Assembly (NCBI GenBank): GCA_035559295.1
Contig: DATMBL010000158.1
Coordinates: forward strand, 1 to 56,561
DNA from: Candidatus Eiseniibacteriota bacterium
GTDB lineage: Bacteria; Desulfobacterota; Binatia; UBA9968
DNA: 56,561 nucleotides
Reading direction: 5' to 3'
Under the pieces are notes generated by a model. The model made no database searches. It was not told the DNA's origin and was given only the letters and a program-made list of their open reading frames with translations. The translations under genes were made by a program, and so were the position numbers. Below, piece after piece: positions 17,435-34,481 of the stretch. Position 1 is the stretch's first letter. Each line of letters opens with the position of its first letter.

Positions 17435-17980
17435 TTAACCCTCGACCACGACCTCGTCCATCCTGTCCACTTCCCTGAGTTTCACTTGCACGTCCGCGCT
17501 CGACGAAAGGCTGAGCTTCTTGCCGACGTAATTGGCCGCGATCGGCAGTTCCCGGCCGCCCCGGTCGATCAGCACCGCGAGGTGGATCATCCGCGGGCGG
17601 CCAAAATCGATCAGGTGGTCGACGGCGGCCCGGACCGAACGCCCGGTGTGGAGGACGTCATCAAACAAAACGACAATCTTGTTGCTGATGTCGACCGGAA
17701 TCTGGGTGTGATCGATCGTTCTTCGCGGGAGGAGCGCGTTCAAATCATCGCGGTAGAGCGCGATATCCATCTCGCCCACCGGGATGTGCTTGCCGGCGCG
17801 TTTTTCGATCAGCTGCGATAGCCGTTTTGCGAGATACGGGCCGCGCGTGCGAACGCCGATGAACACGACTTGGTCGAGAGTGCCGTAGGCGCGGAGGATC
17901 TCCCGGCTGAAGCGCTCGAGAATCGCCTTGATTTGAGCGGCGTTCAAAATCCGCTTTTTTTTTCGGCTAGAGCCTTTCAT
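17435..17980 (-). CDS. pyrR: Bifunctional pyrimidine operon regulator / uracil phosphoribosyltransferase PyrR
   Basis: 181 aa. It has the PRPP-binding loop VVLFDDVLHTGRS and the typical PyrR N-terminus (ILNAAQIKAILERFSREI...FIGVRTRG). It overlaps the upstream gene by 14 nt. Confidence 0.9.
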   Translation of the reverse strand: MKGSSRKKKRILNAAQIKAILERFSREILRAYGTLDQVVFIGVRTRGPYLAKRLSQLIEKRAGKHIPVGEMDIALYRDDLNALLPRRTIDHTQIPVDISNKIVVLFDDVLHTGRSVRAAVDHLIDFGRPRMIHLAVLIDRGGRELPIAANYVGKKLSLSSSADVQVKLREVDRMDEVVVEG

Positions 17981-19265
17981 TGGCGACTCGGACGATCGCT
18001 TCCGTGAGCAGCTGGGTCCCGAGGCAGATGTCGTCGGGGTCGGTCCACTCCAACGGATTGTGGCTGATACCGCGCCTGCTCGGAATGAAGATCATCGCGG
18101 CGCGCGTGATCTTGGCCATTTGCATGGCGTCGTGGCCGGCTCCCGAAGGCATGATCTCGTAGTCGATGCCCTTCTCGTCGCAGATCTCGCGGGTGAGCCG
18201 GAGCAAGCGCTTGTCGAGCGGCACGGGATCCTCGTCACGGATGCGCAGGATACGCGCGCCGAGGCCGCGCTCGGCGGCGATGCGCCGCGCCTCGTTCATG
18301 ACGCGCCGCGCAACGTGCTCCTTAGCGCGGGCGCTGACGCTTCGGATATCAACCGAGAGCTCGGCGCTTCCCGGAACCGCATTGATCACGCCCGGCTCGA
18401 CCTTGAGCGCCCCGACCGTGCCGACGACGCGGTTTTTTCCCGCTGCCGAGAATCGCTTGCAGACTCTCTCGACGTACTCGATCAGCAACGCCGCGGCGAC
18501 CAACGCGTCCTTGCGCATCTCCATCGGTGTCGTTCCTGAATGATCGGCCCGGCCGGTAAAGATCACCTTGAAGCGACTCGGGGCCGCTATCGCGGTGACC
18601 AGCCCGATGCGCTTTCGCCTCGCTTCGAGCACCGGACCCTGCTCGATGTGGAGCTCGAGGTAGGCCTTGACCGTCTTGGGGTCTCGCTTCAACGACGGCA
18701 GCGTGCGCGCGGAAATGCCGAGATCCGAAAGGACGTCCTGCAGCTTCGTGCCGTAGGCGTCCACGGCGTTGGCCAAGGCTTCGAGCTTCACCTCGCCGGC
18801 CACGAGGCTGCTCCCCAACGTTGAAAACCCGAAGCGGCTGGACTCCTCGCCCACGAAGCACACCACCTCGAGCGGCGAACGGAGCGCGATGCGGTTTTCA
18901 CGGATCGTACGCGCCGCCTCCAGGGCGCCGATCACGCCCACGGGGCCGTCGTACTTGCCGCCCTGAATGACGGTGTCCAAATGAGAGCCCGAAAGCACCG
19001 CGGGCGCGCGCGCGTGCGTGCCGGCGAGCCGCCCGAAGATGTTGCCGACGGCATCCAAGTGAATATCGAGCCCCGCCTGGCGCATCAGATGAATCAGGAG
19101 CTGCCGGCCGCGCAGCTCGTGCACGGAGAAAACCAGGCGGGTGACACCCCCGTGGCGGCCGATGCCGATGCGCGAAACGGCGTTGAGATCGCGCATGAGC
19201 CGGCGCTTGTTGATCGTGATGCTCGAGCGAATCTGCGAACCGGCGGCGGCGAAAGGAGGCGTCAC
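17967..19265 (-). CDS. M20-family Zn amidohydrolase of the allantoate amidohydrolase / N-carbamoyl-amino-acid (beta-ureidopropionase-type) hydrolase group
   Basis: 432 aa with a GTG start. Motifs seen are GGVTRLVFS, DAVGNIFGR, SGSHLDTV..GGKYDGPVGV, EVVCFVGEE and RADHSGTTPM, the signature of this subfamily. Confidence 0.8.
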   Translation of the reverse strand: MTPPFAAAGSQIRSSITINKRRLMRDLNAVSRIGIGRHGGVTRLVFSVHELRGRQLLIHLMRQAGLDIHLDAVGNIFGRLAGTHARAPAVLSGSHLDTVIQGGKYDGPVGVIGALEAARTIRENRIALRSPLEVVCFVGEESSRFGFSTLGSSLVAGEVKLEALANAVDAYGTKLQDVLSDLGISARTLPSLKRDPKTVKAYLELHIEQGPVLEARRKRIGLVTAIAAPSRFKVIFTGRADHSGTTPMEMRKDALVAAALLIEYVERVCKRFSAAGKNRVVGTVGALKVEPGVINAVPGSAELSVDIRSVSARAKEHVARRVMNEARRIAAERGLGARILRIRDEDPVPLDKRLLRLTREICDEKGIDYEIMPSGAGHDAMQMAKITRAAMIFIPSRRGISHNPLEWTDPDDICLGTQLLTEAIVRVANERL

Positions 19266-19383
19266 GCCCGGATTCTACCAGCTTCGAGAACGAGTGAAAA
19301 ACGGGACGAGAGGCCGGTTCTACACGGAACGCTCGTCGATGCGCCTCGTTGGCATCGCCGCCACGCTGTGTTATATGCGAGCC

Positions 19384-19404
19384 AGTCCACGGGAGAAAGG
19401 CCGG
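19384..19404 (+). promoter_or_regulatory. Possible PyrR-binding RNA element overlapping the pyrE ribosome-binding site
   Basis: The sequence AGTCCACGGGAGAAAGGCCGG resembles the PyrR box core ARUCCAGAGAGGYU. It is flanked by GCC/GGC pairing and covers the GGGAGAAAGG SD of pyrE. This is resemblance only. Confidence 0.25.
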
Positions 19405-19406
19405 TC

Positions 19407-20075
19407 ATGAGCGAAGTTGCCCAAAAAGTGGCAGAGGCGCTGCTCCGCACCGAAGCGATTCAAGTTTACCGCGACAAGCCCTTTGTGTTCGTCTCGGGCC
19501 GAATTTCACCGGTTTATATCGATTGCCGGAAGCTGCTCTCGTTTCCCGCAGAGCGCGATTACATTGTCACGCAACTCGCCAAGCGGGCCGAAGAAGCGAT
19601 CGGCCTCAGCCGCATCGACGTCGTTGCCGGAGGAGAGACGGCCGGCATTCCCTACGCGTCGTTTGTTGCGCATCTGCTGAGAAAGCCGCTGATCTATATC
19701 CGCAAGCAGCCCAAAGGCTACGGCGGAACCCGCCAGATCGAAGGCATTCTCGAAGCAGGGCAAAGGGTGCTCCTGGTCGAGGATCTCATCACCGACGGCC
19801 TGAGCAAGCTGCGTTTTAACATCGGCATCCGGGCGGCGGGAGCGAAGATGACCGACTGCCTGTGCGTTTTCGACTATGCCTCCGACCGATTGGCCCAGCA
19901 TGAAGGACGGGAGAACCTGGCGAAAAACGACATTGCGCTTCATGTCCTGGCGAACTGGGACGACGTTCTCGACACCGGTCTGGCGAAAAATTACTTCACC
20001 GAAGACGCCAACCGGCAGATCACCGATTTCTTGAGAGATCCCGAAAACTGGGGTCGCAAGATGGGGTTTGTGTAG
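19407..20075 (+). CDS. pyrE: Orotate phosphoribosyltransferase
   Basis: The internal ATG at 19407 gives 222 aa (MSEVAQKVAEALLRTEAIQV...FVFVSGRISPVYIDCR...). The PRPP loop is VLLVEDLITDGLS. The 5' part of track ORF 18981..20075 is antisense to the M20 gene. Confidence 0.9.
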   Translation: MSEVAQKVAEALLRTEAIQVYRDKPFVFVSGRISPVYIDCRKLLSFPAERDYIVTQLAKRAEEAIGLSRIDVVAGGETAGIPYASFVAHLLRKPLIYIRKQPKGYGGTRQIEGILEAGQRVLLVEDLITDGLSKLRFNIGIRAAGAKMTDCLCVFDYASDRLAQHEGRENLAKNDIALHVLANWDDVLDTGLAKNYFTEDANRQITDFLRDPENWGRKMGFV

Positions 20076-20087
20076 CCGCCCCGGCCG

Positions 20088-21488
20088 TCAAAGAGGCGGT
20101 TGCTCGCGATCCCAGCCCGCGGCTCGTTCGTAAGCGTACGCAACGCGGAGGGCGAGTCCCTCCTCAAACGCCGGCGCGGCAATTTGAAGCCCTACGGGAA
20201 GTTTGCCCGAAGTAAAGCCGCACGGCACCGAAACGGCGGGGAGCCCGCTCAAATTGAACGCGTTGGTGAAGCTCGGGCGGAGGTTTTGTTCGTTCGGGTC
20301 GAGCCGCTCGAACGCTTCGGGGGGCCGCGGTGTCGTCGGCGTCGCGAAGACATCGACGGTGGCGAAGTTGGAACGCATGCGTTCGGTCAAAACCACGCGC
20401 GCGCGTTGCGCGGTAATGTAATCGGCGGCGCTCAGAAAAGCACCCTCGAGAAGCCTCCGGCGCACGCTCGTGCCGAACTTCTCCGGCGCTCGGCGCAACG
20501 CGTTCTCGTGGTAGGCGTAGGCCTCCGCGAGCAGCAATGTTTGATTCGCTTTGCGCGCCGCCGAGAAGGGCTCGCCGTCGATTTCGATCAGCTTCGCGCC
20601 GAGCGTCTCGAGCTTCGCTAAAGCCCGATCAAAAACCGCTTCGGTTTCCGCATCCGTTCCCTTTTGTTCGTCAAACCAACCGCGCCTGGGGACGCCGATA
20701 CGGATGCCTGCGATTCCGGATCCGAGCGCGGCGCCGAAATCCGGCACGGCGACGGTCGCGGAAGCGGGGTCGCGGGGGTCTGGGCCGGCGATCGCTTGCA
20801 GTAGCAGCGCGCAATCCTCGACCGTGCGCGCCATGGGCCCGGCGTGATCGAGGGACCAGCTGAGCGGGACCAAGCCGAAACGGCTGACGCGCCCGTAGGT
20901 CGGCTTTAGCCCGACGACACCGCAGTGGGATGCGGGAGTGCGGATCGATCCGCCGGTGTCCGAACCGAGCGAGCCGAGACAAAACGCGGCTGCGAGAGCC
21001 GCCCCTGACCCACTGCTCGATCCGCCCGGAACGTGACCCGGATTCCAAGGATTGCGCACGGCGGGAAAGGGGGCGTCGATCGATGGTCCGCCAAAAGCAA
21101 ACTCGTGCATTCCGAGCTTGCCGAGTAGAACAGTCCCCGCCGCCGCCAGCCTGACAACGGCCGTCGCATCCTCAGCGGGGATCCAGTTCTCGCGTACCGC
21201 GGAGTGGCACGTCGTGCGGATTCCTCTGGTCATGTAGAGGTCTTTGAGAGCCACGGGAATTCCGTGCAGCGGCCCGCGATCGACTCCGGCGCGCAACTCT
21301 TGATCGAGCTTGCGGGCTTGTTTCAGCGCCAACTCGGCAGTGACGGTGATGAACGCGTGGAGTTTCTCGTCGTGCGCCGCGATTCTGTCGAGGCAGGCTT
21401 GCGTGAGTTCGGGAACCGAAAAATCGCCGCGCCGCAGGCACCGGCCGGCTTCGCCGATCGAAAGGGCGGGCAAGTCCAGAGACGCCAT
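20088..21488 (-). CDS. Amidase-signature (AS) family amidase, GatA/AtzE-like
   Basis: 466 aa. It has the catalytic Lys context GIPVALKDLY and the AS Gly/Ser-rich motif GGSSSGSGAALAA..GSDTGGSIRTPA. Confidence 0.88.
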   Translation of the reverse strand: MASLDLPALSIGEAGRCLRRGDFSVPELTQACLDRIAAHDEKLHAFITVTAELALKQARKLDQELRAGVDRGPLHGIPVALKDLYMTRGIRTTCHSAVRENWIPAEDATAVVRLAAAGTVLLGKLGMHEFAFGGPSIDAPFPAVRNPWNPGHVPGGSSSGSGAALAAAFCLGSLGSDTGGSIRTPASHCGVVGLKPTYGRVSRFGLVPLSWSLDHAGPMARTVEDCALLLQAIAGPDPRDPASATVAVPDFGAALGSGIAGIRIGVPRRGWFDEQKGTDAETEAVFDRALAKLETLGAKLIEIDGEPFSAARKANQTLLLAEAYAYHENALRRAPEKFGTSVRRRLLEGAFLSAADYITAQRARVVLTERMRSNFATVDVFATPTTPRPPEAFERLDPNEQNLRPSFTNAFNLSGLPAVSVPCGFTSGKLPVGLQIAAPAFEEGLALRVAYAYERAAGWDREQPPL

Positions 21489-21494
21489 GGACGT

Positions 21495-21692
21495 TCAGCC
21501 GCCGTACGCGCGCGCCGCCGAAAACACCGAAGCCGGCTCAATGCCCTCGGTAACCCAGGAGCGAAGCTCCTCGGCTTGCCGCCACGCGCGGTTCACTCCG
21601 GGAAGCAGCCGCTCGATCTCGGCAGCCGGCAGCCGAAGTCCAGCGCGTCGGGCGCGGTCCTCGAGATCAGCTTTTGTAAGTTCGTACGCCAT
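21495..21692 (-). CDS. Small GatC/AtzG-like subunit candidate (65 aa)
   Basis: The ATG at 21692 gives MAYELTKADLEDRARRAGLRLPAAEIERLLPGVNRAWRQAEELRSWVTEGIEPASVFSAARAYGG. The stop lies 6 nt before the amidase ATG. The pattern (helical, L.L...E.E.L ... EP) resembles GatC-type subunits. The longer 193-aa track ORF has a junk-like Arg/Gly-rich 5' part. Confidence 0.5.
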   Translation of the reverse strand: MAYELTKADLEDRARRAGLRLPAAEIERLLPGVNRAWRQAEELRSWVTEGIEPASVFSAARAYGG

Positions 21693-22231: not shown

Positions 22232-23263
22232 CTACTTCTTCGGCAGCAAAATCTCCCGGAGCTTGCCGACCATGGCCGCGTCCACCTGGTAGAGCTTGCG
22301 CGCGATACTCTCCACCTGGCTTCCGCTCAAGGGATTGAGGTCCAAGTTCGCTTTGGCGAGTTCGGCTGCGAAGTCCTTGTCCTTCATGGTCAGCATGAAG
22401 GCCTCGCGCAGGATCGCGAGTCTTCCCGGGGGTGTCCCGGGCGGCAGCGCATAGGCGCGCAGAATCGCCGATGGCGCATGAATTCCCGCTTCGATCAACT
22501 CTTTGGCTTCGGCGGTTTTCGCGTAGTCGATCGCGTTTGGCACATGGGGGATATCCGGAGCCTTCTTGGCGTTGACCTGCAAGACCACGTTCACCTGGCC
22601 GGATTCAATTCCCTTTTTCCAGGTCGATCGGATCGACGCCCAGGTCCAACAGCCGCCATCGACCTCTCCCGCCTCGGCGGCGATGCGGATGAACGACGTC
22701 CCTTTGTAGCCTTCGATCAACTGGATAGGCAGGTTTAGCGCTGCTCGCAAAATTCTCGGAACGTCGGAGTCGTTCGCTCCGGGAGCTTCGCCGCCGAGCT
22801 TGATCGGCCTCTTGGACGCGAACCACTGATCGAGCGCGGTTATCCCGCTCGCCTTCGTAAGCGCGCACGCCGTGTCGTCCATGACCGGCGCGCCGAGCCA
22901 TTCGAACTTCCGGCCGTCGAACTCGATGCCTTGATCGCCCAAGATCTGCTGCAGGAGCAGAGAGCCGATGAAATTACCGATCGTCAAACCATCTGGAGCG
23001 CTCGCCTTGTAGAGATAATTGGCCGCAAGCCGGCTCCCGGCTCCGGCCATGTTGTCGACGATCATCGCCGGCTGTCCGGGAATGTATTTCGGCATATGCC
23101 GCGCGATGGCGCGCGCATAGGCATCGAAGCCCCCGCCCGCGGCAAAGCCGACGATGACCCTTATGGTTTTACCCTTGTAAAAATCCTGATCCGCTCCGGC
23201 TCCGGCGGCGGGCCGGGGAAAAAGCGCGGCGCAGACGGTCAGAAGCAGGAGAGTCCTTCCCAT
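22232..23263 (-). CDS. Bug-family (TctC-like) periplasmic carboxylate-binding protein
   Basis: The ATG at 23263 follows GGAGGAGG. The signal peptide is MGRTLLLLTVCAALFPRPAAGAGA. The Bug pattern is present (FYKGKTIRVIVGFAAGGGFDAYAR...PGQPAMIVDNMAGAGS). No tctA/tctB genes are nearby. Confidence 0.85.
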   Translation of the reverse strand: MGRTLLLLTVCAALFPRPAAGAGADQDFYKGKTIRVIVGFAAGGGFDAYARAIARHMPKYIPGQPAMIVDNMAGAGSRLAANYLYKASAPDGLTIGNFIGSLLLQQILGDQGIEFDGRKFEWLGAPVMDDTACALTKASGITALDQWFASKRPIKLGGEAPGANDSDVPRILRAALNLPIQLIEGYKGTSFIRIAAEAGEVDGGCWTWASIRSTWKKGIESGQVNVVLQVNAKKAPDIPHVPNAIDYAKTAEAKELIEAGIHAPSAILRAYALPPGTPPGRLAILREAFMLTMKDKDFAAELAKANLDLNPLSGSQVESIARKLYQVDAAMVGKLREILLPKK

Positions 23264-23316: not shown

Positions 23317-24513
23317 CTAGCGCAAGTTGCCGGTATGACCGAGGGAGTAGCGGCCCGGTTGCGGCCAAAGGGTGAGCCCGTGGGGTTCGCTCTTTACCGG
23401 AATACTTTTCACGGCGCCGCTCGCCGTGTCGATCGCATAGACGACATCGTCGTAGCGCCCTGAGAGCCACAGAGTCTTGCCGTCGATGCTGAAATTCCCC
23501 ATATCCGGGCTGCCGCCTCCGGGAATGAGCCAGTCCGCGACCACTCTTCGGGTGGCGAAGTCGATCACGGAGACGCTGCCCTTGCCGCGCGGCGGTCCAT
23601 AGACTCTAGCCACGCCGCGGTTGGCGACGTAGAGTCGGGTTGCGTCCCGGCTCGGATAGAGACCATGCGCTCCAAGCCCGGTCTTGATATAGCCGACTTC
23701 GACCAGCCGATCGCCGTCGACGAGAAAAACCCCTTCGGCTTTCATGTCGGCAACGTAGAACACCTTGCCGTCGGGCGCGATGCGCACGTCCTGGGGCATG
23801 CCCCCTCGCGAGAGTTTCAGATAGCCGACGACCCGGTTTTCGATCAGATCGATTTTGGCGATGCTGCCCGCGTACTCGCAGGTGAAGAGCGCATAGCGGC
23901 CGTCGATCGAGAAATCAGCGTGGTTGATCCCCGCGCAATGCGGCGTTTCAATCGAGTACTTGAGCGCCATCGTTTGCGGGTTGCGGAAGTCGAGCCGCTT
24001 GCGCGCTTCCGCGACGATGATGGTCGCGGAGCCGTCAGGCGTGAAGTACATGTTATAGGGATCATCGACCGGGATGGTTCTCACCGGCTTGGCGGTCAGG
24101 GGATCGATCGCCGTAACGCTGCCATCGTTACGGCCCTCCGCATTGTTGTTGACCCAGAGGGTTTTTAAGTCCCACGAGGGCACCACGTGCTGCGGGTGAA
24201 CGCCGACGCGGAACCTGTCCACGACTTTGAACGTGGCCGGATCGATCACCCAAACGTCGTTCGAGCTGCGGTTGGGGACGTAGACGCGCGATAGATGCTT
24301 GGCAACGACCGAGCTGAGTTTTCCGGCGCCGATTTCGCTGTAGAGATTTTTGGGATCGATGACCGGCGGCATGCCGGGGACGGTCTGGACTACGGGGACG
24401 GAAGGGCTCGCTCGGGCTTCGCTTGCAGCCGCGCCCGCCCATGCCCAGGCGAGGTGTAAAACGCTTCCGAATAGAAAACTTGAAACGAAGCTGGCGCGGA
24501 TCTTTACGCGCAT
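23317..24513 (-). CDS. Secreted beta-propeller repeat protein (YVTN/YncE-like)
   Basis: The ATG at 24513 is followed by a signal-like N-terminus (MRVKIRASFVSSFLFGSVLHLAWAWAGAAA). Repeated strand-rich units carry V.VID / YVAN / P.G..F.PDG motifs. Confidence 0.7.
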   Translation of the reverse strand: MRVKIRASFVSSFLFGSVLHLAWAWAGAAASEARASPSVPVVQTVPGMPPVIDPKNLYSEIGAGKLSSVVAKHLSRVYVPNRSSNDVWVIDPATFKVVDRFRVGVHPQHVVPSWDLKTLWVNNNAEGRNDGSVTAIDPLTAKPVRTIPVDDPYNMYFTPDGSATIIVAEARKRLDFRNPQTMALKYSIETPHCAGINHADFSIDGRYALFTCEYAGSIAKIDLIENRVVGYLKLSRGGMPQDVRIAPDGKVFYVADMKAEGVFLVDGDRLVEVGYIKTGLGAHGLYPSRDATRLYVANRGVARVYGPPRGKGSVSVIDFATRRVVADWLIPGGGSPDMGNFSIDGKTLWLSGRYDDVVYAIDTASGAVKSIPVKSEPHGLTLWPQPGRYSLGHTGNLR

Positions 24514-26860: not shown

Positions 26861-27360
26861 CACTTTTCTCCCGCAGCGCCCGCGGCATTGCGCTGCCGCA
26901 GTTGAGCGGCGGCATCCTGGACGGCTTGAACGATCTTCGCGTACCCGGTGCAGCGGCAGAGATTGCCCGAAAGCGCAAATCGGATCTCCTCCTCGGTGGG
27001 ATTCGGATTCTCGTCGAGCAACGCCTTGGACATCATCAGCATGCCGGGAGTGCAGTAGCCGCACTGGGCGCCGCCATCCTCGATGAACGCCCGCTGGATC
27101 GGGTGCAGCTCGGGCCCGATGCGCAATCCCTCGATCGTGACGAGCTCCGCCCCGTCAAGCTCACCGGAGAACACCAGACACGAGTTGACCGGTCTGCCGT
27201 CGAGATAGACCGTGCACGCGCCGCAATCTCCCGTGCCGCAACCCTCCTTGGTGCCGGTGAGCCCGAGTTCGTCGCGCAAGAGATCGAGCAGGAGGCGGTG
27301 GTTTGGAACTTCCCGGGCGATGCTCTTGCCGTTCAAAGTGAAACGGATTGTTTTCTTCAT
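26860..27360 (-). CDS. [2Fe-2S]-binding small subunit of the molybdenum hydroxylase
   Basis: Motifs seen are MKKTIRFTLNGK..., the plant-type cluster CGTGDCGACTV and the second cluster QCGYCTPG...LCRCTGY. Confidence 0.9.
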   Translation of the reverse strand: MKKTIRFTLNGKSIAREVPNHRLLLDLLRDELGLTGTKEGCGTGDCGACTVYLDGRPVNSCLVFSGELDGAELVTIEGLRIGPELHPIQRAFIEDGGAQCGYCTPGMLMMSKALLDENPNPTEEEIRFALSGNLCRCTGYAKIVQAVQDAAAQLRQRNAAGAAGEK

Positions 27361-27425
27361 AAGGTTAAGTTTACTACGCTTTTCCAAGACTCCAACACTC
27401 GGTGACTCCCGCCGTCAGGAACGTA

Positions 27426-28364
27426 TCAATACCGCCGCTCGCGTCGCTCGCACCACGCGATCCTTTCGGCGCGCGGCGCGGCTGCGTTCAGCAAAGCGCG
27501 CTTCGTCATCGCCTCGACCATGGCGCGGCGGTACTCCGCCGAAGAGCGCACGTCGCTGATCGGGCGGCTTTCCCGGGCGGCTTCCGCGGCCGCTCTGGCC
27601 GCAAGCCCCTCGGTCAAGCCCTGGCCTTCGAGCACGGCTTCTGCCGCGCGCGCGCGCATCGGCGTCGGCGCCACCGCTCCGAGCACGATCCGGACCCGTT
27701 CGCAGCGCCGCTCCGGCTCGAGCAGAAGGTAAGCGACCGCAACCCCTACGTAGGCGAGGTCCATCATGTCGCGCGGCGAAAACTTTATGTACTCGCCCAC
27801 CAGCCGCTTGCGCCCGCGATCCTCGGAGCGGACGGGGCTCGGAATCGTGATTTGCGTGAGGATTTCTTCGGCCGACAGCACGGTCTGTCCGGGGCCGCGG
27901 AAAAACTCTTCCAGGGGAACGGTGCGCTCGTGCTCGCCGTTTTCGATCAGAACCGTGGCGTCGAGGGCGATCAGCGCGGGCGCGACGTCGGCCGAAGGCG
28001 TGGCGTTCGCCATATTACCGCCGACGGTGGCCCGATTGCGGATTTGAATCGAGCCGACCTCGGCCGCGCTCTGGGCGAGGAAGGGGAACCGCTCGACGAT
28101 CAGCGCCGAAGTCTCGAGCGCGCGCATGGTGGTCAACGCGCCGATCGTGATGCTGCCGTCTTCGTTTTCTCGTATACCCGAGAGCCCGGGAATCCGCTTC
28201 AGGTCGACGACGTACTTCGGCGCCAGTCCCTTTTCTTTGACCGCGATGACGAGATCGGTGCCGCCGGCAAGAAACCGTCCGCCGGGGCCGCGGTTTCGGA
28301 GCAGCGCGCTCGCCTCGGCAATCGAGGTCGGTTGGTACATTTCAAAGGGTTCGGGGCGCTTCAT
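27426..28364 (-). CDS. FAD-binding medium subunit (CoxM/XdhB-like) of the molybdenum hydroxylase
   Basis: Motifs seen are FLAGGTDL and ATVGGN, plus the C-terminal CO-dehydrogenase flavoprotein-like region (SDVRSSAEYRR). The start is taken at MKRPEPFEMY. Confidence 0.85.
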   Translation of the reverse strand: MKRPEPFEMYQPTSIAEASALLRNRGPGGRFLAGGTDLVIAVKEKGLAPKYVVDLKRIPGLSGIRENEDGSITIGALTTMRALETSALIVERFPFLAQSAAEVGSIQIRNRATVGGNMANATPSADVAPALIALDATVLIENGEHERTVPLEEFFRGPGQTVLSAEEILTQITIPSPVRSEDRGRKRLVGEYIKFSPRDMMDLAYVGVAVAYLLLEPERRCERVRIVLGAVAPTPMRARAAEAVLEGQGLTEGLAARAAAEAARESRPISDVRSSAEYRRAMVEAMTKRALLNAAAPRAERIAWCERRERRY

Positions 28365-28477
28365 TGCCGAAAAGGGATTCAATTCGTTCGACCGCGTTCG
28401 CTCGGTTCAACCGCTCCGCTCCCTTCAAACGGCTTGAACCCCGTTTGGCCTTTTGAACGGATTGATCGTCTCGCATA

Positions 28478-29848
28478 CTACACCAGCGGGCGGACCATGC
28501 GGCCAATCGCTTTGCCGCAAGGTTCGCCGTCGCGCATCTGCACGTGACCGCGCACCACCGTGCACACCGGCATTCCTTTGACTTTCCAACCGTGCCACGG
28601 CGACGGCTTGTTCTTGCTGTGCAGTTTGTTGACGTCGATGACGGCTTCCTTATCCATGTCGACGATCGTGACATCGCCGTCCGAACCGAGGCGGATCGCG
28701 CCTTTTTTGGGATAGATCTGCCAGACGCGCGCGGGGTTTTCGCAGGCGACCTTCACATAGTGATTGAGGGTCATTCTTCCCTTGTTCACTTCGGTTAAGA
28801 TCAGCGGCACGCCGGTTTCAACGCCGCAGAACCCGGAGATGCAGTCCCAGATCGCGCCCTTGGTGAGTTTGCCGTAGAGATCGGAGCCCTTCTCTTCGAG
28901 CGTATGAGGAGAGTGATCGGTTGCGATCATATCGACGTAGCCGTTGATCAAGCCGTCCCAGAGCACCTCGGCGTGATCCCGGGTGCGCACCGGAGGATTC
29001 ATCTTCAGTAGCGACCCCACGTTTTCCATATCCTTCGGCTCGCGCAACAGGTAATGAGGTCCGGTCTCGGCCGTGACCCGCAAGCCGCGGGCTTTAGCGT
29101 CGCGAACCATGTAGGCGGCCTGCTTCGAGCTCATGTGAAAAACGTGCAGCTTGGTGCCGAAGGTCTCGGCGAAGAAAAGCGCATGGTGCACCGATTCCGC
29201 TTCGCAGATATCGGGCCGTGAAGCTTCCCAGTACACGGGGCTGTTCTTACCCTCCGATTTCAGCTTGTTGGTGCAGTAAGCCATGATCTGGCGGTTCTCG
29301 GCGTGAATGCCGAGGGGCAGTTTCGACTGCGCGATGTAATCGAAAGCCTCCATGCACATGCCGTCGTCGGGAAACGGGAGATTGCCGATCGTCTCCCCGA
29401 AAAAGATCTTGAACCCGATCGCTCCGGCAGCGGCCATGGGAAGGATCTCTTTCGTGTTGGTCTGGACCACGACGCCCGTGACACCGAAGTCGACGAGCGA
29501 TTTCTGCTCGCCGAGCTGCTGCTTGATCCTTACCTGTTCCGCATCGGCCGTCGGCGGGACCGTATTCGGCATATCGACGACGAAAGTTACACCGCCGCAC
29601 ACCGCCGCGGTCGAGCCGGTGGCGAAGTCTTCTTTGTGGGTCATGCCGGGTTCACGGAAGTGCACGTGCCCATCGATCACCCCGGGCAGGATGTGCCGCC
29701 CCTTGGCGTCGATTTCCTCTTTACCCTGAGGCAACTGATCGTCGGTGCCGATCGCGACGAATTTTTCGCCGGTAATCGCCACGCCTCCTTTGAACGTGTC
29801 GGTCGGGGTTACCACCCAGCCGTTTTTGATAACGAGATCTGCTGCCAT
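28478..29848 (-). CDS. Cyclic amidohydrolase (dihydroorotase / allantoinase / hydantoinase superfamily)
   Basis: 456 aa. The complete binuclear-metal ligand set appears in order: HVHFREPG (HxH), GFKIFF (carbamylated Lys), GIHAEN, HVFHMSS and ATDHSPH. Confidence 0.88.
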   Translation of the reverse strand: MAADLVIKNGWVVTPTDTFKGGVAITGEKFVAIGTDDQLPQGKEEIDAKGRHILPGVIDGHVHFREPGMTHKEDFATGSTAAVCGGVTFVVDMPNTVPPTADAEQVRIKQQLGEQKSLVDFGVTGVVVQTNTKEILPMAAAGAIGFKIFFGETIGNLPFPDDGMCMEAFDYIAQSKLPLGIHAENRQIMAYCTNKLKSEGKNSPVYWEASRPDICEAESVHHALFFAETFGTKLHVFHMSSKQAAYMVRDAKARGLRVTAETGPHYLLREPKDMENVGSLLKMNPPVRTRDHAEVLWDGLINGYVDMIATDHSPHTLEEKGSDLYGKLTKGAIWDCISGFCGVETGVPLILTEVNKGRMTLNHYVKVACENPARVWQIYPKKGAIRLGSDGDVTIVDMDKEAVIDVNKLHSKNKPSPWHGWKVKGMPVCTVVRGHVQMRDGEPCGKAIGRMVRPLV

Positions 29849-29862: not shown

Positions 29863-30603
29863 TCAGCGTAGTGATCTTTGCTTTTGGTCGGGTCCGGCCG
29901 GGCGGAGCTCGCGGATCGCCAGCCGGCGCTCGAGATCCGACAGGACGTTTTTCTTGCCTTCCTGGATATGCGCGCGGATCAGATCAACGGCCCGGCCGGC
30001 GTCGCGCTGCTCGATTGCGAGCAACAGCCGCACATGCTCCTCATGAGCGATCAAGCCGCGCGCGGGGTCGTACAGGCCATCGGTGCGCCGCTTCAACACG
30101 ATCCGCTCGAAAACGCGTTCCAGCATCTGGGCGAGCGTTTCGTTTCCCGCGAGTCGCGCGATTTCCAGATGGATCCCCTGATCGACCCTGAGGCGCTCGC
30201 GCGTGAACGGCCTTTGCAAATCGGCGCCGTACTGTTCGATCCTCCGCCGCAGGCTATCAAGCGCGGGCTGCGTGAGGCGCTCGACCGCTTTTTCGACCGC
30301 GAACGCCTCCAACGCCTCGCGCAGCTCATAAAGCTCGATGGCTTCCGCCAGGCCGATTTCCCTACACGTGAATCCCCGGTTCGGTAGAAACGAAACGTAT
30401 CCTTCTTCCACGAGACGCGTCAGCGCCTCCCGGACCGGCGTGCGGCTCACACCCAGCCGGTCACTGAGTTCCTGGTGGTAGAGCTTCTGCCCGGGCATGA
30501 TTTGATTGCTGAGGATCAGCGTCTTGATCTGCTGATACACGCGGCTCGAGAGATTTTCGATGACCCGCGATTTGCTCCGAGGTGAATCGAGCGAGTAGGC
30601 CAT
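29863..30603 (-). CDS. GntR-family transcriptional regulator (FadR/FCD subfamily)
   Basis: The winged-HTH region is LYHQELSDRLGVSRTPVREAL.RL..EG, followed by a C-terminal all-helical FCD-like domain. The start is taken at MAYSLDS (30603), so the palindrome at 30613..30634 is upstream rather than inside the gene. Confidence 0.85.
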   Translation of the reverse strand: MAYSLDSPRSKSRVIENLSSRVYQQIKTLILSNQIMPGQKLYHQELSDRLGVSRTPVREALTRLVEEGYVSFLPNRGFTCREIGLAEAIELYELREALEAFAVEKAVERLTQPALDSLRRRIEQYGADLQRPFTRERLRVDQGIHLEIARLAGNETLAQMLERVFERIVLKRRTDGLYDPARGLIAHEEHVRLLLAIEQRDAGRAVDLIRAHIQEGKKNVLSDLERRLAIRELRPAGPDQKQRSLR

Positions 30604-30612
30604 GGGTAAACT

Positions 30613-30634
30613 TTGCATAAAAAACTTTATGCAA
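30613..30634. promoter_or_regulatory. Perfect 9-4-9 inverted repeat TTGCATAAA-AAAC-TTTATGCAA, candidate GntR operator
   Basis: Read directly from the sequence. It lies 10 nt upstream of the preferred GntR start, in the divergent intergenic region shared with the ABC ATPase/UbiD genes. Confidence 0.45.
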
Positions 30635-30793
30635 TTTAGCGGAACCTATCCGATCGCCGGCTCGATGTCAACGAACCTCGCCAAGCCTTGAAAAAAGAAT
30701 TAAAAATGATAATAGCTGCCACGATTCGGTTGCGCGGCGAACGCTCCTGAAGATCCCGGCCGAGCGCGACCGGCGCATTCAAAAGGAGGGACT

Positions 30794-31609
30794 GTGGCAC
30801 AGACTAAATTGCAGGCGATCGGATTGCGCCATGAGTATTACCAGCCGCGCACCGGCGGGCGGCTCTTGGCGCTCGATAACGTCAATCTAGCAGTCGAGGA
30901 GGGTGAGTTCGTTACGATCGTCGGCCCGAGCGGTTGCGGCAAGACCACCTTCATCAACTTGTGCGACGGCTTGCTCACGCCCACCGCGGGCCAGATCCTG
31001 ATCGACGGCAAGAAGGTCACCGGGCCCGGGACGGACCGCGGCATGGTCTTTCAGGACTCGTGCCTGATGCCGTGGAGGACCGTTTTGAAAAACGTCATCT
31101 TCGGGCTGGAATGTCAGGGCCTGGATAACGGCGAGGGTCACGCGCGCGCCCGCAAGTTCATCAAACTCGTCGGGTTGGAGGGCTTCGAAGACCACTATCC
31201 GCACGAGCTGTCGGGCGGTATGCAGCAGCGCTGCAACTTGGCTCGAGCGCTCACCGTCGATCCGAAGATTCTCATCATGGACGAGCCGTTTGCCGCGCTC
31301 GACGCGCAAACGCGCGAGATCATGCAGCTCGAGCTGCTCCGGATCTGGCGCGAGGCGAACAAGACCGTGCTTTTCATCACCCACCAGATCAGCGAAGCGA
31401 TCTATCTCGCGGACCGCGTGATCGTGTTCGGCGCCCGCCCCGGCCGAGTGAAAGAGACGATCAAGATCGACATTCCCCGGCCGCGTCCTCTTTCGGTCAA
31501 ACGGGAACGGAAATTTCTCGAGTACGAGGATCATCTCTGGAACCTGATCGAAGAAGAGGTGAAAAAGACGATGCTCGCGGATCAGGTCGTGCACAATATC
31601 AACGCGTAA
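30794..31609 (+). CDS. ABC transporter ATP-binding protein (nitrate/sulfonate/taurine NitT/TauT-type)
   Basis: The GTG start follows AAAGGAGGG. Motifs seen are Walker A GPSGCGKTT, signature LSGGMQQR, Walker B ILIMDEPF and the H-loop ITHQ. Confidence 0.9.
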   Translation: MAQTKLQAIGLRHEYYQPRTGGRLLALDNVNLAVEEGEFVTIVGPSGCGKTTFINLCDGLLTPTAGQILIDGKKVTGPGTDRGMVFQDSCLMPWRTVLKNVIFGLECQGLDNGEGHARARKFIKLVGLEGFEDHYPHELSGGMQQRCNLARALTVDPKILIMDEPFAALDAQTREIMQLELLRIWREANKTVLFITHQISEAIYLADRVIVFGARPGRVKETIKIDIPRPRPLSVKRERKFLEYEDHLWNLIEEEVKKTMLADQVVHNINA

Positions 31610-31814
31610 CTCAGGCGTTAGCCGGTCCGATCGGGAGGCGCGGGTGCGGCGGCTCGATTTCCCAACGCATGTTGTTCTAGCGGCGACTCACTTTATTCTC
31701 TCTCCGGCCGGCATTCCGGTTGCGTTGGTTGCGCCGCGCGGGTTCGGAGCACGGTTCGGCGGCATCGCCGGTTGAGGGTACGTGCGGCGGCTTTAACTTC
31801 GCTGGAGGAAACCG

Positions 31815-32963
31815 ATGGCGGAGAAGAGAGACATGGTGCAAATCGAGTCGCTCGAGAAATACTTCGGCGAAGGGAAGGAGCGGGTGCACGTCTTGAAGGG
31901 CATCTCGCTCAACATCCCCGAGGGCTCGCTCTACACTTTCCTCGGCCCGAGCGGCTGCGGCAAGACCACGACGCTTCGCTGCGTGGCCGGGCTGGAACGT
32001 CCCGACGGCGGCAGGATCAGCATCGGCGGGCAGACGGTGTTCGCTTCGGGCGAGCGGGTCTACGTGCCCACCAATAAACGTCCCATCGGCATGGTGTTTC
32101 AGTCCTACGCGATCTGGCCGCACATGACGGTTTTCGAAAACGTGGCTTACCCGCTGACGATCCACCGTCGCCCGAAGGACGAAATCAAGCGGCGCGTGCG
32201 CGACGTGTTGCGGATTGTCGGACTCGACGGGTTGGAGGATCGCCCGGCGCCGAAACTCTCCGGCGGCCAGCAACAGCGCGTTGCATTTGCGCGAGCGCTG
32301 GTGAACGAGCCGAAGGTGATGCTGCTCGACGAACCGCTGAGCAACCTCGACGCCAAGTTGCGGGTGCAGATGCGCTCGGAGATCAAGGCGCTCCAGCGGC
32401 GGACCAATATTACGACGATCTTTGTCACGCATGATCAGTCGGAAGCGCTGGCGATCTCGGACCAGATCGCCGTCATGCACGCCGGAAAACTCATCGAAGT
32501 CGGCTCGCCCCATCAGCTCTATACCCGGCCCAAGAGGAAGTTTACCGCCACCTTTTTGGGCCTGACCAATCTGATCGAAGGCAAAGTGCTCGAGGTCAAC
32601 GGCGACGGCCGCCCCGCGAAAATGGAGACGAAAAAAGGCGTCTTGACGTTCACGCCGACGGCGCCGTTGAAGCGCGATCAAGCCGCGGTGATTTCGATTC
32701 GCCCGGAAAACATCCCGCTTCACAAGGAAAAACCGCAGGGCGTCGAAAACGTGCTCGACGGCACGGTGACCGAGGCGGTGTTCATGGGGGACGCGTATCA
32801 CTGCAAGGTGGCGGTCGGCGACGACGTGCTGGCGGTGCACACGCATCCGTTCAATTCGGTGAACCCGGGAGACAAGGTCTACCTCCATTTGGATCCGAGA
32901 AGCTGCAATGGACTTCCGGCCGACGATGTCGAAGGTGTTGATGAAACGATGATGGGGCACTAA
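31815..32963 (+). CDS. ABC transporter ATP-binding protein (PotA/CysA/MalK-type with C-terminal TOBE-like domain)
   Basis: Motifs seen are Walker A GPSGCGKTT, LSGGQQQR, MLLDEPLS and VTHDQ. A C-terminal beta-rich regulatory extension of about 130 aa follows. Confidence 0.9.
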   Translation: MAEKRDMVQIESLEKYFGEGKERVHVLKGISLNIPEGSLYTFLGPSGCGKTTTLRCVAGLERPDGGRISIGGQTVFASGERVYVPTNKRPIGMVFQSYAIWPHMTVFENVAYPLTIHRRPKDEIKRRVRDVLRIVGLDGLEDRPAPKLSGGQQQRVAFARALVNEPKVMLLDEPLSNLDAKLRVQMRSEIKALQRRTNITTIFVTHDQSEALAISDQIAVMHAGKLIEVGSPHQLYTRPKRKFTATFLGLTNLIEGKVLEVNGDGRPAKMETKKGVLTFTPTAPLKRDQAAVISIRPENIPLHKEKPQGVENVLDGTVTEAVFMGDAYHCKVAVGDDVLAVHTHPFNSVNPGDKVYLHLDPRSCNGLPADDVEGVDETMMGH

Positions 32964-32993
32964 ACTGGCGCTATCGCGAAAGGAGACCGTCTC

Positions 32994-34481
32994 ATGACTG
33001 CATTGGAAGCGAGGAAACTGGCCGAAACGGAGATCAAGGCCGGCAAGACGCCCAGCTACACCGACCTGCGGGAATGGCTCGAGATCGTCGATAGCTTCGG
33101 CGAGCTGAAAAAGATCGATAACTGCGACTGGAACCTGGAAATGGGAACGCTCTCGGAGCTGATTGCGCGCGAGAGCAAGGGACCGGTGCCCGCATGTTTG
33201 TTCGATAACATCAAAGATTACCCGAAGGGGTATCGGGTTCTGTTCGCGCAAAACGCGTCGTTCAAGCGGATGGCTCTCAATCTGGGATTGCCCCTCGAGC
33301 TCGCCAATCTCGATCTGGTGCGCGCGTTGCGTCAGAAACTCGCTTCCCACAAACCGATCCCGCCCAAGGTGGTGAGCAAGGGGCCGATTCTCGAGAACGT
33401 GATGTCCGGAAACGACGTGAACCTTTTGAAGTTCCCCGTGCCGCTGATTCACGAGCACGACGGCGGCCGATTCATCGGTACCGGATGTCTGGTGATCACG
33501 CGCGATCCGGACGAGGGGTGGGTGAACTTCGGCGCGTACCGGGGAATGGTTCATGACGAGAAGAGCATGGGCCTCTACATCTCGCCGGGCAAGCACGGCA
33601 GCATTCAAAGGGCCAAGTGGTTTGAAAGAGGCAAGACCTGTCCCGTGGTGATCTGTGTCGGGCAGGATCCGGTCCTGTTTATGGTTTCGGGCAACGAGAT
33701 CGATTACGGTCTGTCGGAGTTCGATTATGCCGGCGGACTCAAAGGCGCACCCATCGAAGTCATTGAAGGGCGCGCAACCGGGCTACCCTTTCCCGCGCAC
33801 GCCGAGATCGTGATCGAAGGTTTCATGGATCCAAACGACCGCAAGACCGAGGGGCCGTTTGGCGAGTGGACCGGTTACTATGCGAGCTCGAGCCGGCCCG
33901 AACCGGTCGTGCGCGTGCAAAACATCTATTACCGCAACGACCCGATCCTCACCTGCGCGCGCCCGGGCCGACCCCCCTCCGATTACTCGTTGGCCAAATG
34001 CATGGTCAAATCCGCGCTCATCTGGGAGCAGGTCGAAAAGGCAGGCGTGCCCGACGTGCGCGGCGTGTGGTGTCACGAAGCCGGCGGCGGGCGCCTGCTC
34101 AACATCATTTCGATCAAGCAGCGCTACCCCGGGCACGCGCGCCAGGCGATGCTCGCGGCCTCTCAGGTCCACGCCGGCGCTTATCTGGGCCGCTATGTCA
34201 TCGTGGTCGATGAGGACATCGATCCGACCAACACGTTCGATGTGCTTTGGGCTTTGGCGAGTCGCTCCGATCCCGTCGAATCGATCGAAATTTTGCGACG
34301 CTGCTGGAGCGGGCCGCTCGATCCGCGGATTCATCCGAGCAAGAAGGGCTTCAACTCCCGCGCGGTCATCGATGCCTGCCGTCCATTCGAGTGGCTCAAA
34401 GACTTCCCGCCCGTCGCCGAGTCGAGTCCGGAACTCAAGGAGAAGGTCCGGAACAAATGGAGGCACGTGATTGAAAGTTAA
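32994..34481 (+). CDS. UbiD-family (prenylated-FMN dependent) decarboxylase
   Basis: 495 aa. The UbiD blocks are present (FDNIKDYPKGYRVL..., GRFIGTG, PDEGWVNFGAYR, GPFGEWTGYY, VVVDEDIDP). No ubiX lies in the window. Confidence 0.88.
   Translation: MTALEARKLAETEIKAGKTPSYTDLREWLEIVDSFGELKKIDNCDWNLEMGTLSELIARESKGPVPACLFDNIKDYPKGYRVLFAQNASFKRMALNLGLPLELANLDLVRALRQKLASHKPIPPKVVSKGPILENVMSGNDVNLLKFPVPLIHEHDGGRFIGTGCLVITRDPDEGWVNFGAYRGMVHDEKSMGLYISPGKHGSIQRAKWFERGKTCPVVICVGQDPVLFMVSGNEIDYGLSEFDYAGGLKGAPIEVIEGRATGLPFPAHAEIVIEGFMDPNDRKTEGPFGEWTGYYASSSRPEPVVRVQNIYYRNDPILTCARPGRPPSDYSLAKCMVKSALIWEQVEKAGVPDVRGVWCHEAGGGRLLNIISIKQRYPGHARQAMLAASQVHAGAYLGRYVIVVDEDIDPTNTFDVLWALASRSDPVESIEILRRCWSGPLDPRIHPSKKGFNSRAVIDACRPFEWLKDFPPVAESSPELKEKVRNKWRHVIES

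Follow-up and report, generated by a model that had tools for sequence, protein, structure and literature searches.

A conserved Binatia gene module joining a dihydroorotase-type cyclic amidohydrolase, a molybdenum hydroxylase and a UbiD decarboxylase: a candidate for the catabolism of N-heteroaromatic acids

The oxidative pyrimidine pathway of Rhodococcus and Mycobacterium relies on ring hydroxylation by a molybdenum (Mo) enzyme, hydrolytic opening of the ring by a barbiturase of the AtzD/TrzD fold and ureido or amide hydrolysis by an amidase-signature enzyme, the family to which the Rhodococcus ureidomalonase belongs, and it uses no oxygenase. Clostridium oroticum ferments orotate along a reductive route made up of orotate reductase, dihydroorotase (DHOase) and ureidosuccinase. 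The hmf cluster of Cupriavidus basilensis (HmfABCDE/FG) joins a UbiD/UbiX decarboxylase to a furoyl-CoA dehydrogenase of the xanthine dehydrogenase (XDH) family, and a xanthinase pathway gene cluster was reported in 2023 from Clostridia and Bacilli (Tong et al., as cited in PMC12507026). Here we describe a gene module that shares traits with each of these systems, found at positions 1 to 56,561 of contig DATMBL010000158.1 (assembly GCA_035559295.1) of a Candidatus Eiseniibacteriota bacterium placed by GTDB in the Binatia; this whole stretch is referred to below as the window. At the centre of the module is a DHOase-type cyclic amidohydrolase, encoded with the three subunits of an XDH-family Mo hydroxylase and opposite two ATP-binding cassette (ABC) ATPases and a UbiD-family decarboxylase dependent on prenylated flavin mononucleotide (prFMN), Table 1. 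The module is real, conserved and uncharacterised among the curated models and solved structures that we searched, and our best reading of it is a variant of Mo-hydroxylase-based N-heterocycle catabolism for which those models and structures hold no characterised counterpart.

Comparison with the described systems brings out both what is familiar and what is not. As in Rhodococcus and Mycobacterium, Mo-dependent ring hydroxylation, hydrolytic opening and ureido or amide hydrolysis by an amidase-signature enzyme would proceed without an oxygenase, but the predicted ring opener is a metal-dependent DHOase-type TIM-barrel protein with a carboxylate-binding triad and not an AtzD/TrzD-fold barbiturase, the module adds UbiD, an ABC importer and a second Mo subunit, and its amidase is accessory. 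With PyrC of the type I or archaeal-like kind and with the C. oroticum fermentation it has in common the metal and Arg/Asn/His ligands and a nearby M20 carbamoyl hydrolase; unlike these, the amidohydrolase gene sits in a GntR-headed XDH operon opposite that of UbiD, the module neighborhood contains no gene for a dihydroorotate dehydrogenase or an orotate reductase, and the protein scores under all DHOase equivalog cut-offs. The hmf and the pic/nic clusters likewise direct a non-oxidative decarboxylase and a three-subunit XDH-family hydroxylase at a heteroaromatic acid and make use of TctC-type carboxylate carriers, whereas the present module has no CoA ligase or thioesterase, and a cyclic amidohydrolase would open its ring where those clusters use a CoA-ester hydrolase or a dioxygenase. 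A partner gene for a helical protein of ∼65 residues precedes the amidase-signature gene as it does in AtzE-AtzG (1-carboxybiuret hydrolase) and GatCAB, yet the amidase lies under both of the corresponding cut-offs, no similarity of sequence to GatC or AtzG can be detected in the small protein, and neither GatB nor AtzD, AtzH or AtzF accompanies the module. The clostridial xanthinase pathway is likened by reaction type, with a Mo hydroxylase, hydrolysis of a uracil-like ring, decarbamoylation and heteroaromatic decarboxylation; it is reported from Clostridia and Bacilli, and its later genes are absent from the window. A search of the literature for clusters that combine UbiD, a Mo hydroxylase and a cyclic amidohydrolase gave no match.

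Gene calls were taken from the listing of open reading frames (ORFs) and family scans were run against Pfam and NCBIfam with curated cut-offs. A preliminary description had proposed an island for the oxidative catabolism of N-heterocycles, and every gene that it listed was found at the place and with the domains claimed. Relatives were collected with the amidohydrolase in a scan of one genome per GTDB species that returned at least 200 matching stretches, of which the best 80 species-representative genomes were used, nearly all of them Binatia or 'Deltaproteobacteria' metagenome-assembled genomes with a few Acidobacteriota. Each relative was readable as 10 kb on either side of the amidohydrolase orthologue, every window protein was compared with these loci by tblastn, and the counts that follow give the loci with the gene over those with enough flank to hold it.

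Six components form a co-conserved core: the amidohydrolase, the flavin adenine dinucleotide (FAD) subunit (63/71 loci), the 2x[2Fe-2S] (FeS) subunit (60/68), the catalytic Mo subunit, hereafter Mo (55/62), an ABC ATPase and UbiD (45/49). The TOBE-type ATPase was present in 51 of 57 loci, invariably beside UbiD, and the NitT-type ATPase in 54 of 69. In 38 of the 44 loci where both flanks could be read the FAD, FeS, Mo, TOBE-ATPase and UbiD genes all occur at 60% identity or more, so the synteny in related genomes for which the preliminary description had suggested a check is found and the juxtaposition of the core genes is not due to chance. The remaining genes are accessory, namely the GntR regulator (45/73), the exported propeller (30/55), the Bug-like binding protein (21/54), and the amidase (15/48) with its mini-subunit (18/53). 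The notion of a single co-conserved island thus survives for the core and fails for the propeller, the binding protein and the amidase/mini-subunit pair, which were recovered in 15-30 of about 50 eligible loci. Core orthologues are 72-93% identical to the window proteins across the Binatia; for the amidohydrolase the range is 76-93% over the 80 species genomes and 75-92% among the best 120 clusters, and UbiD, at 80-93%, compares with 67-89% for pyrE.

The pyrimidine genes that flank the module, pyrE and an M20-pyrR pair, are lineage-specific neighbors. The pyrE gene lies between the M20 and amidase genes and is convergent with the latter, and the M20 and pyrR genes overlap by 14 nt; the unit of M20-pyrR and pyrE adjoins the cluster in this sub-lineage only. 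A metagenome scan with M20 recovered M20-pyrR with divergent pyrE as a conserved unit of its own (L094-L099), pyrE is found at the variable end of the cluster in ∼16 related loci irrespective of the accessory genes, and deep-branching complete Binatia chromosomes lack the M20-pyrR/pyrE unit altogether, the Mo gene being followed there by a CobW-type gene and recR/dnaX. An M20 carbamoylase is an unusual partner for pyrR, which is normally sited before pyrB and pyrC.

The amidohydrolase is the hub of the module and is found in several arrangements. In L068-L073 the UbiD-ABC genes face the amidohydrolase with no XDH genes behind it, in two Acidobacteria loci (L074, L075) XDH and amidohydrolase genes occur and UbiD is absent, in L066 and L067 the amidohydrolase stands beside a different XDH paralogue that is 55% identical to the second Mo subunit described below, and on long Terriglobia contigs the amidohydrolase, at 80% identity, lies opposite a third XDH paralogue (44%) accompanied by CoxG, a major facilitator superfamily (MFS) carrier and a distantly related UbiD. 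That the gene is linked repeatedly and independently to Mo hydroxylases and to UbiD argues for function and not for inherited synteny. In the Terriglobia loci (L063, L070 and L004-L006, contigs of up to 2.2 Mb) the amidohydrolase shares 80-82% identity with those of Binatia, against only 44% for the adjacent Mo enzyme, a gap that suggests either lateral transfer of the amidohydrolase gene alone or an unusually strong constraint on it.

What the amidohydrolase may act upon is best approached through its active site. The protein passes the pyrC_multi subfamily-domain model TIGR00857 (343 vs a cut-off of 279; bit scores throughout) and falls below the DHOase equivalogs PRK02382 (355 vs 452), PRK09060 (342 vs 482) and PRK07575 (340 vs 529). 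Against solved structures it scores 272 with an L-hydantoinase, 251 with an allantoinase and ∼215 with dihydroorotases, overall equidistant. The full set of metal ligands claimed for it is indeed there: H61, H63, K147, H182, H238 and D311 are invariant (alignment A2) and align with the ligands of the solved enzymes. Also present is the carboxylate triad of DHOase, in the motifs HVHFR65, MPN95T and D311HSPH315, which follow the type I pattern HxHxR, MPNT and DHxPH; in the E. coli enzyme Arg20, Asn44 and His254 are reported to bind the α-carboxylate of the substrate (Thoden et al. 2001). The complete triad is shared with the B. anthracis DHOase 3mpg and is not found in the allantoinase 3hm7 or the hydantoinases 1gkr, 1gkp and 1nfg, the allantoinase having Asn, an inserted MPLN and Ser at the respective sites of the alignments. 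Since the triad is retained, the substrate for ring opening should bear a carboxylate placed as in (dihydro)orotate, and the signature favors an orotate- or dihydroorotate-like carboxylated ring over barbiturate, which has no carboxylate; the earlier proposal of a DHOase-type enzyme standing in for barbiturase is weakened to that extent. The protein is probably the hydrolytic ring-opening enzyme of the module.

An assignment to AllB allantoinase was rejected on the basis of score (TIGR03178, 345.1 < 357.85) and motifs, Arg replacing Asn after HxH, the one-residue insertion of MPLN being missing and His replacing Ser after DHSP. The corresponding allantoin or purine-ureide reading (XDH, allantoinase, allantoate amidohydrolase) was set aside for the same DHOase rather than allantoinase motifs and for want of uricase, HIU hydrolase and OHCU decarboxylase. 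Beyond the relatives described above, a plasmid search found homologues of the amidohydrolase at 44% identity only and in other contexts; the triad is kept in those of Haloterrigena, beside a gene for a quinone-dependent dihydroorotate dehydrogenase, and of Azospirillum, in a catabolic-looking cluster.

The Mo hydroxylase has the complete three-subunit XDH-family domain set, with the Mo-site Gln and catalytic Glu motifs QHAAMEPH and GLGEPG in Mo, and the TGATG overlap of the FeS and Mo genes, through which translational coupling had been proposed, was verified in the sequence. The best curated models for Mo are XdhA (574, cut-off 780) and the α subunit of 4-hydroxybenzoyl-CoA reductase (4-HBCR; 573, cut-off 995), the carbon monoxide dehydrogenase (CODH) models scoring 303-344 with cut-offs of 950 or more, and the best solved structure is 1rm6_A, 4-HBCR α, at 405 as compared to 265 for CoxL. 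Where CODH has its active-site Cys loop Mo reads SYRGYG, without Cys. The FAD subunit is closest to XdhB (243 vs a cut-off of 310), and for all three subunits the nearest curated models include those of the XdhABC type. Within the aligned sequences the site corresponding to the purine-binding Glu of bovine XDH is Gly in Mo, and E. coli XdhA, itself without the canonical Glu, has Gln.

A second, lone Mo-binding subunit, Mo2, lies 3.4 kb past UbiD with neither FeS nor FAD genes to go with it and is 40% identical to Mo, its best curated model being 4-HBCR α (560, below cut-off). Orthologues of Mo2 (62-77% identity) occur on the UbiD side in ∼25 related loci, and in deep-branching genomes an Amidohydro_2 gene precedes Mo2 and an MTHFR-like gene follows it. 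Mo2 probably shares the FeS and FAD subunits with Mo. By score both proteins are nearest to the 4-HBCR α and XdhA-type models, far below the cut-offs, and stand well away from CODH and the aldehyde oxidoreductases in the NCBIfam and solved-structure matches; the Mo enzyme is neither a CO dehydrogenase nor an aldehyde oxidoreductase, and the affinity to CO dehydrogenases that would have spoken against the catabolic interpretation is not seen in these scores. A reading in terms of 4-HBCR and phenylphosphate carboxylase was tried and rejected for scores that fall far short of the cut-offs, for want of a CoA ligase and because the FAD subunit, with only two Cys residues, lacks the [4Fe-4S] insert of 4-HBCR.

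The UbiD protein passes the subfamily cut-off of TIGR00148 (299 vs 245); like the amidohydrolase and M20 it passes NCBIfam models at the subfamily level only. It retains the Arg/Glu/Glu motifs N-x-G-x-Y-R (NFGAYR) and E-G-P-F-G-E (EGPFGEWTGYY), whose catalytic roles are established for the UbiD/Fdc1 family of prFMN enzymes (PMC5818171). Its best match among solved structures is 7pda, the phenazine-1-carboxylate decarboxylase PhdA, at 385. Only ∼150 was obtained with 6h6x and 6h6v, which we take to be HmfF. Orthologues with 45-48% identity to the window protein occur in Burkholderiales (Paraburkholderia caribensis, Hydrogenophaga, Ottowia and two Massilia loci), where they are 76-98% conserved among themselves and where the neighbors include, some or all per locus, UbiX, XDH-like FAD-Mo-FeS genes, CoxG, an α/β-hydrolase, RidA and TctC or an MFS carrier, the Massilia loci having a CoA ligase and a thioesterase as well. 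UbiX adjoins UbiD in these betaproteobacterial relatives and in Streptomyces, the Streptomyces pairs having come from the plasmid search. The anaerobic phthalate cluster of Aromatoleum aromaticum EbN1 contains a UbiD orthologue placed after a homologous ABC system, the ATPase upstream of this orthologue being 43% identical to the NitT-type ATPase of the window. For (hetero)aromatic acids, the pairing of this UbiD clade with a Mo hydroxylase and with carriers for carboxylates is thus a design that recurs and that calls to mind the hmf cluster; a DHOase-type ring opener is used in the Binatia version only. Since the closest relatives act on (hetero)aromatic acids such as phenazine-1-carboxylate, a role for UbiD on pyrimidines, as proposed earlier, becomes less probable. 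The betaproteobacterial UbiD-XDH cluster is itself seemingly uncharacterised and is present in culturable strains.

The two ABC ATPases reported opposite the gene train are both present, and what is missing is the permease, a 563-residue fusion of two BPD_transp_1 halves that is encoded between the two ATPase genes in most relatives. About 200 nt are left at this position (31610-31814) and tblastn found no permease remnant in them; the closest relative (L008) is without a permease too. The importer is probably non-functional in this genome or else is served by a permease encoded elsewhere. The closest curated model for the NitT-type ATPase is a taurine ABC ATPase (251, below cut-off). The exported binding protein has weak matches, at most 37.5, to BugE-like and terephthalate-binding proteins of solved structure, and as the window contains neither TctA nor TctB membrane partners it may serve the ABC system instead of a tripartite transporter.

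The amidase falls below the cut-offs for GatA (363 vs 481) and AtzE (335 vs 461 and 329 vs 426), and by solved structures it is nearer to GatA (335) than to AtzE (6c62, 232). A gene for a mini-protein of 65 residues always adjoins it, with 42-56% identity over 18 sequences (alignment A3), so the pairing noted earlier holds. A sequence-level match to GatC or AtzG does not: no Pfam or NCBIfam family was matched, and a profile run against solved structures gave chance matches only. What can be said is that a single-sequence AF2 model (pLDDT 86) finds GatC chains as four of the best five Foldseek matches, including the top four, with probabilities of 0.75-0.92, TM scores of 0.57-0.63 and E-values of 0.65-1.9 that are not significant; the resemblance of the mini-protein to GatC/AtzG is one of position and predicted fold. 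The window also contains divergent genes of the GluRS (3284-4708) and GlnRS (4846-6576) type, near two tRNA genes (3067-3216), and if the GlnRS is functional a GatA-like amidase is unlikely to be needed for the formation of Gln-tRNA. The M20 protein passes the subfamily model NF006771 (458 vs 399), is below that for ErtE (436 vs 520) and is most similar, among solved structures, to the L-N-carbamoylase 3n5f (299).

GntR is the first gene of the amidohydrolase-hydroxylase operon, the spacings between GntR, amidohydrolase, FAD and FeS genes being 14, 95 and 38 nt, with a 539-nt gap further on between the binding-protein gene and the mini-ORF. The intergenic region of 175 nt that separates GntR from the divergent ABC-UbiD operon contains a 9+9 palindrome that is the sole match in the window even when 3 mismatches are allowed (0 expected by chance) and that recurs exactly, and in the same position, in 18 related loci; it is a probable GntR operator. 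The palindrome overlaps the first ATG of GntR, and related GntR proteins begin at the methionine of MAYS..., which places the true start at the second ATG (30603). Relatives also have a conserved promoter-like element, TTGACA...GATAGGT, just upstream of the palindrome. At the other end of the ABC-UbiD operon the 13-bp terminator stem, with 8 G-C pairs, is by far the longest among the 21 terminator-like sites of the window, a total that compares with 18.7 expected from shuffled sequences.

Taken together we give an even chance to the reading that these genes form a GntR-controlled, oxygenase-free catabolic module for an imported N-heteroaromatic carboxylic acid. The acid would be taken up by binding-protein-dependent ABC import, for which the permease has been lost in this genome, and the prFMN-dependent UbiD would then strip off a carboxyl group that is attached to the ring or is of the acrylic type. 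One or two XDH-family Mo hydroxylases, Mo-FeS-FAD and the lone Mo2, would add water-derived oxo groups beside the ring nitrogen, giving a cyclic amide or ureide that still bears a carboxylate, like orotate or dihydroorotate (a 2,6-dioxo-4-carboxy ring). This ring would be opened hydrolytically by the DHOase-type amidohydrolase, leaving an N-carbamoyl or amide acid that either the amidase and its GatC-like mini-subunit or the neighboring M20 carbamoylase could cleave. The most likely substrate families are pyrimidine carboxylates related to orotate, which fit the DHOase signature and the pyrE, pyrR and M20 neighbors, and their pyridine isosteres of the isonicotinate, citrazinate or pyridine-dicarboxylate type, for which two hydroxylases and an amidase, leading from isonicotinate to citrazinate, would be suited. 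The claim of a catabolic role for N-heterocycles thus remains the best interpretation, while its specific assignment to pyrimidines is only partly borne out.

Several observations weigh against such a catabolic module. Among the genes scored, pyrR alone reaches a curated equivalog cut-off in NCBIfam, and as no catabolic gene does so, whatever is said here of substrates we infer. The ORFs scanned in the window gave neither UbiX (PF02441) nor an XdhC-type Mo-cofactor chaperone, the amidase, M20 and binding protein lie outside the conserved core, and not only is the permease missing here, deep-branching relatives hold the TOBE ATPase without any permease at all. Rfam scans, over the whole window at the gathering threshold and over 17-38 kb at E<=1, gave three tRNAs only, with no purine, xanthine or Mo-cofactor riboswitch and no PyrR element, and hence no pointer to a ligand. 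Conservation at the level seen is unusual for a peripheral catabolic pathway, and the DHOase signature, the TIGR00857 match, the haloarchaeal dihydroorotate dehydrogenase (pyrD) neighbor and the adjacency of pyrE and pyrR suit a biosynthetic pyrC equally well.

The last of these points leads directly to the alternatives that stay within pyrimidine metabolism. A route like that of Rhodococcus with a substituted ring opener, in which UbiD would convert orotate to uracil, Mo uracil to barbiturate, the DHOase-type enzyme barbiturate to ureidomalonate and the amidase ureidomalonate to urea and malonate, with pyrE and pyrR salvaging part of the orotate and uracil, is unlikely in our view. It would account for pyrE at the cluster end in ∼16 loci, for the conserved M20-pyrR pair and for the presence of an amidase-signature enzyme, a DHOase-type amidohydrolase is suited to a pyrimidine-dione ring, and the acrylic-type carboxyl of orotate suits UbiD chemistry (PMC8379154). 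It has difficulty, however, with a triad whose three carboxylate ligands are all kept, with an amidase that is found in only 15 of 48 eligible loci and with deep-branching relatives that retain the core and are missing pyrE, pyrR and M20; moreover it offers no place for a second Mo subunit, no Pfam-scanned window ORF matches the AtzD/TrzD-type barbiturase family, and the nearest UbiD relatives use polycyclic or aromatic acids. Our search of the literature on barbiturase and uracil dehydrogenase yielded no gene identification. If the amidohydrolase were instead a housekeeping pyrC in a pyrimidine neighborhood into which a catabolic or detoxifying XDH/UbiD module, unrelated to it, happened to be interleaved, then the complete DHOase signature, the TIGR00857 match, the very high conservation (at least 200 matching stretches among GTDB species representatives) and the nearby pyrE and pyrR would all be expected, the closest cultured homologue, from Haloterrigena, adjoins a quinone-dependent dihydroorotate dehydrogenase gene, and no other pyrC was found among the ORFs scanned in the 56-kb window. 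We nevertheless regard this explanation as improbable, since the gene is second in an operon headed by GntR/FCD with XDH genes within 95 nt, is found, depending on the lineage, with three different XDH paralogues and independently with UbiD-ABC, shows an 80% Binatia-Terriglobia identity that suggests lateral transfer and is atypical of pyrC, and has neither pyrB, pyrD nor pyrF beside it at any of 86 loci. Housekeeping-level conservation and the pyrE/pyrR neighborhood would also be explained by a non-canonical, base-level synthesis of pyrimidines in place of catabolism, the DHOase-type enzyme forming dihydroorotate, the XDH-family enzyme acting as a Mo-dependent dihydroorotate dehydrogenase that abstracts the C6 hydride to give orotate, UbiD producing uracil and PyrR UMP (uridine monophosphate), a scheme to which we attach only the slightest probability.

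Two further alternatives look beyond the pyrimidines. A pyridine carboxylate, either a dicarboxylate or an isonicotinate-type acid, might lose a carboxyl group to UbiD, after which two hydroxylations, one by Mo and one by Mo2, would yield citrazinate, the carbon isostere of orotate. Ring opening by the DHOase-type enzyme would give an aconitamide-like amide, from which the amidase would form a tricarboxylic acid. Here the two Mo catalytic subunits find a use, the triad fits a 2,6-dioxo-4-carboxy ring, the amidase would have a simple amide to take off, the EbN1 homologues of UbiD and the ABC system lie within a cluster for a benzene dicarboxylate (phthalate), and in deep-branching genomes Mo2 is paired with Amidohydro_2, a family that includes several enzymes for the non-oxidative decarboxylation of hydroxy-aromatic acids. 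The argument is one of chemical analogy alone, though, with no sequence pointer to pyridines; it leaves the pyrimidine neighbors unexplained and the M20 carbamoylase idle, the environmental abundance of such acids is uncertain, and this specific route is, we believe, quite doubtful. A purine route of the clostridial xanthinase type calls for exactly the set of a Mo hydroxylase, a ring amidohydrolase, a decarbamoylase and a heteroaromatic decarboxylase, the XDH-like enzyme forming xanthine, the amidohydrolase 4-ureido-5-imidazolecarboxylate, M20 or the amidase removing the carbamoyl group and UbiD acting on 4-amino-5-imidazolecarboxylate, and models of the XdhABC type are among the nearest for all three hydroxylase subunits. 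Yet no NCBIfam or solved-structure entry named for these enzymes was matched, M20 is outside the conserved core and genes for later steps (imidazolone hydrolase, formiminotransferase) are not in the window; we consider this possibility very remote. Papers that cite the xanthinase work name no protein families for its enzymes. This purine alternative, the second Mo subunit and the lost permease are additions to what the preliminary description contained.

Table 1. Features of the module and its flanks in the window (strand given as + or -; numerical scores in bits).
Feature	Position	Strand	Basis
pyrR	17435-17980	-	NF003549 equivalog, 196 (cut-off 138); pyrimidine operon regulator and uracil phosphoribosyltransferase
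M20 amidohydrolase, N-carbamoyl-L-amino-acid type	17967-19265	-	Peptidase_M20 (Pfam)
pyrE, orotate phosphoribosyltransferase	19407-20075	+	NF001729, 234 (cut-off 245); TIGR00336, 106.4 (106.8)
Amidase-signature hydrolase, accessory	20088-21488	-	PF01425, 392
ORF for 65-residue helical mini-protein	21495-21692	-	6 nt before the amidase gene
Exported TctC/Bug-type binding protein, accessory	22232-23263	-	PF03401, 32.8 (cut-off 27)
Exported YncE-like β-propeller, accessory	23317-24513	-	PF21783, 72.8; hydrophobic N-terminus
Mo, molybdopterin-binding catalytic subunit	24548-26860	-	Ald_Xan_dh_C, MoCoBD_1, MoCoBD_2
2x[2Fe-2S] subunit	26860-27387	-	Fer2 + Fer2_2
FAD-binding subunit of XDH-family hydroxylase	27426-28382	-	FAD_binding_5 + CO_deh_flav_C
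Cyclic amidohydrolase, dihydroorotase type	28478-29848	-	Amidohydro_1 (Pfam)
GntR/FCD regulator, start revised to second ATG	29863-30603	-	GntR + FCD domains
Probable GntR operator, perfect palindrome	30613-30634		TTGCATAAA-N4-TTTATGCAA
ABC ATPase, NitT/TauT (taurine/nitrate/sulfonate) type	30794-31609	+	ABC_tran
ABC ATPase with C-terminal TOBE, PotA/FbpC-like	31815-32963	+	ABC_tran + TOBE_2
UbiD-family prFMN-dependent decarboxylase	32994-34481	+	UbiD_N, UbiD, UbiD_C
Intrinsic terminator of ABC-UbiD operon	34506-34536	+	13-bp stem, then T run
Mo2, second lone Mo-binding subunit	37890-40106	+	Ald_Xan_dh_C, MoCoBD_1, MoCoBD_2

Outside the module a few other regions of the window deserve mention. 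The spacer between UbiD and Mo2 (34540-37890) has a G+C content of 53-56% and holds a truncated ORF with a Crp-type helix-turn-helix (34994-35467), small ORFs without assignment and a gene of the SPFH/Band 7 type (36268-37047), where relatives carry SfsA- or MTHFR-like genes instead. Beyond Mo2, positions 41087-43418 encode a HAD hydrolase, an isochorismatase-family hydrolase (41869-42441) and a protein of the inositol monophosphatase family; in deep-branching relatives the HAD and inositol-phosphatase genes keep synteny with the Mo2 region. Among the members of the isochorismatase family are nicotinamidase and the maleamate and ureidoacrylate amidohydrolases. Positions 8001-12000, with ∼49% G+C as opposed to ∼60% elsewhere, contain genes for a VTC-domain protein, an MFS carrier, a phosphonate-type binding protein and a HAMP histidine kinase, and this stretch may have been acquired laterally.

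The Binatia are widespread uncultured bacteria of soils and sediments for which few functions are anchored by experiment. Identities of 75-93% over at least 80 species make it likely that the module matters for their ecology, and it may open nitrogen-rich rings such as those of nucleobase derivatives or pyridine acids to these organisms without the need for oxygenases. Should our preferred reading, the catabolism of an N-heteroaromatic carboxylic acid, be correct, the module would provide a DHOase-derived ring opener for an oxidized heterocycle, a new class of substrates for prFMN/UbiD enzymes and two uncharacterised XDH-family hydroxylases, all of them amenable to direct testing as recombinant proteins, and it would bear on the turnover of heterocyclic nitrogen in low-oxygen soils.

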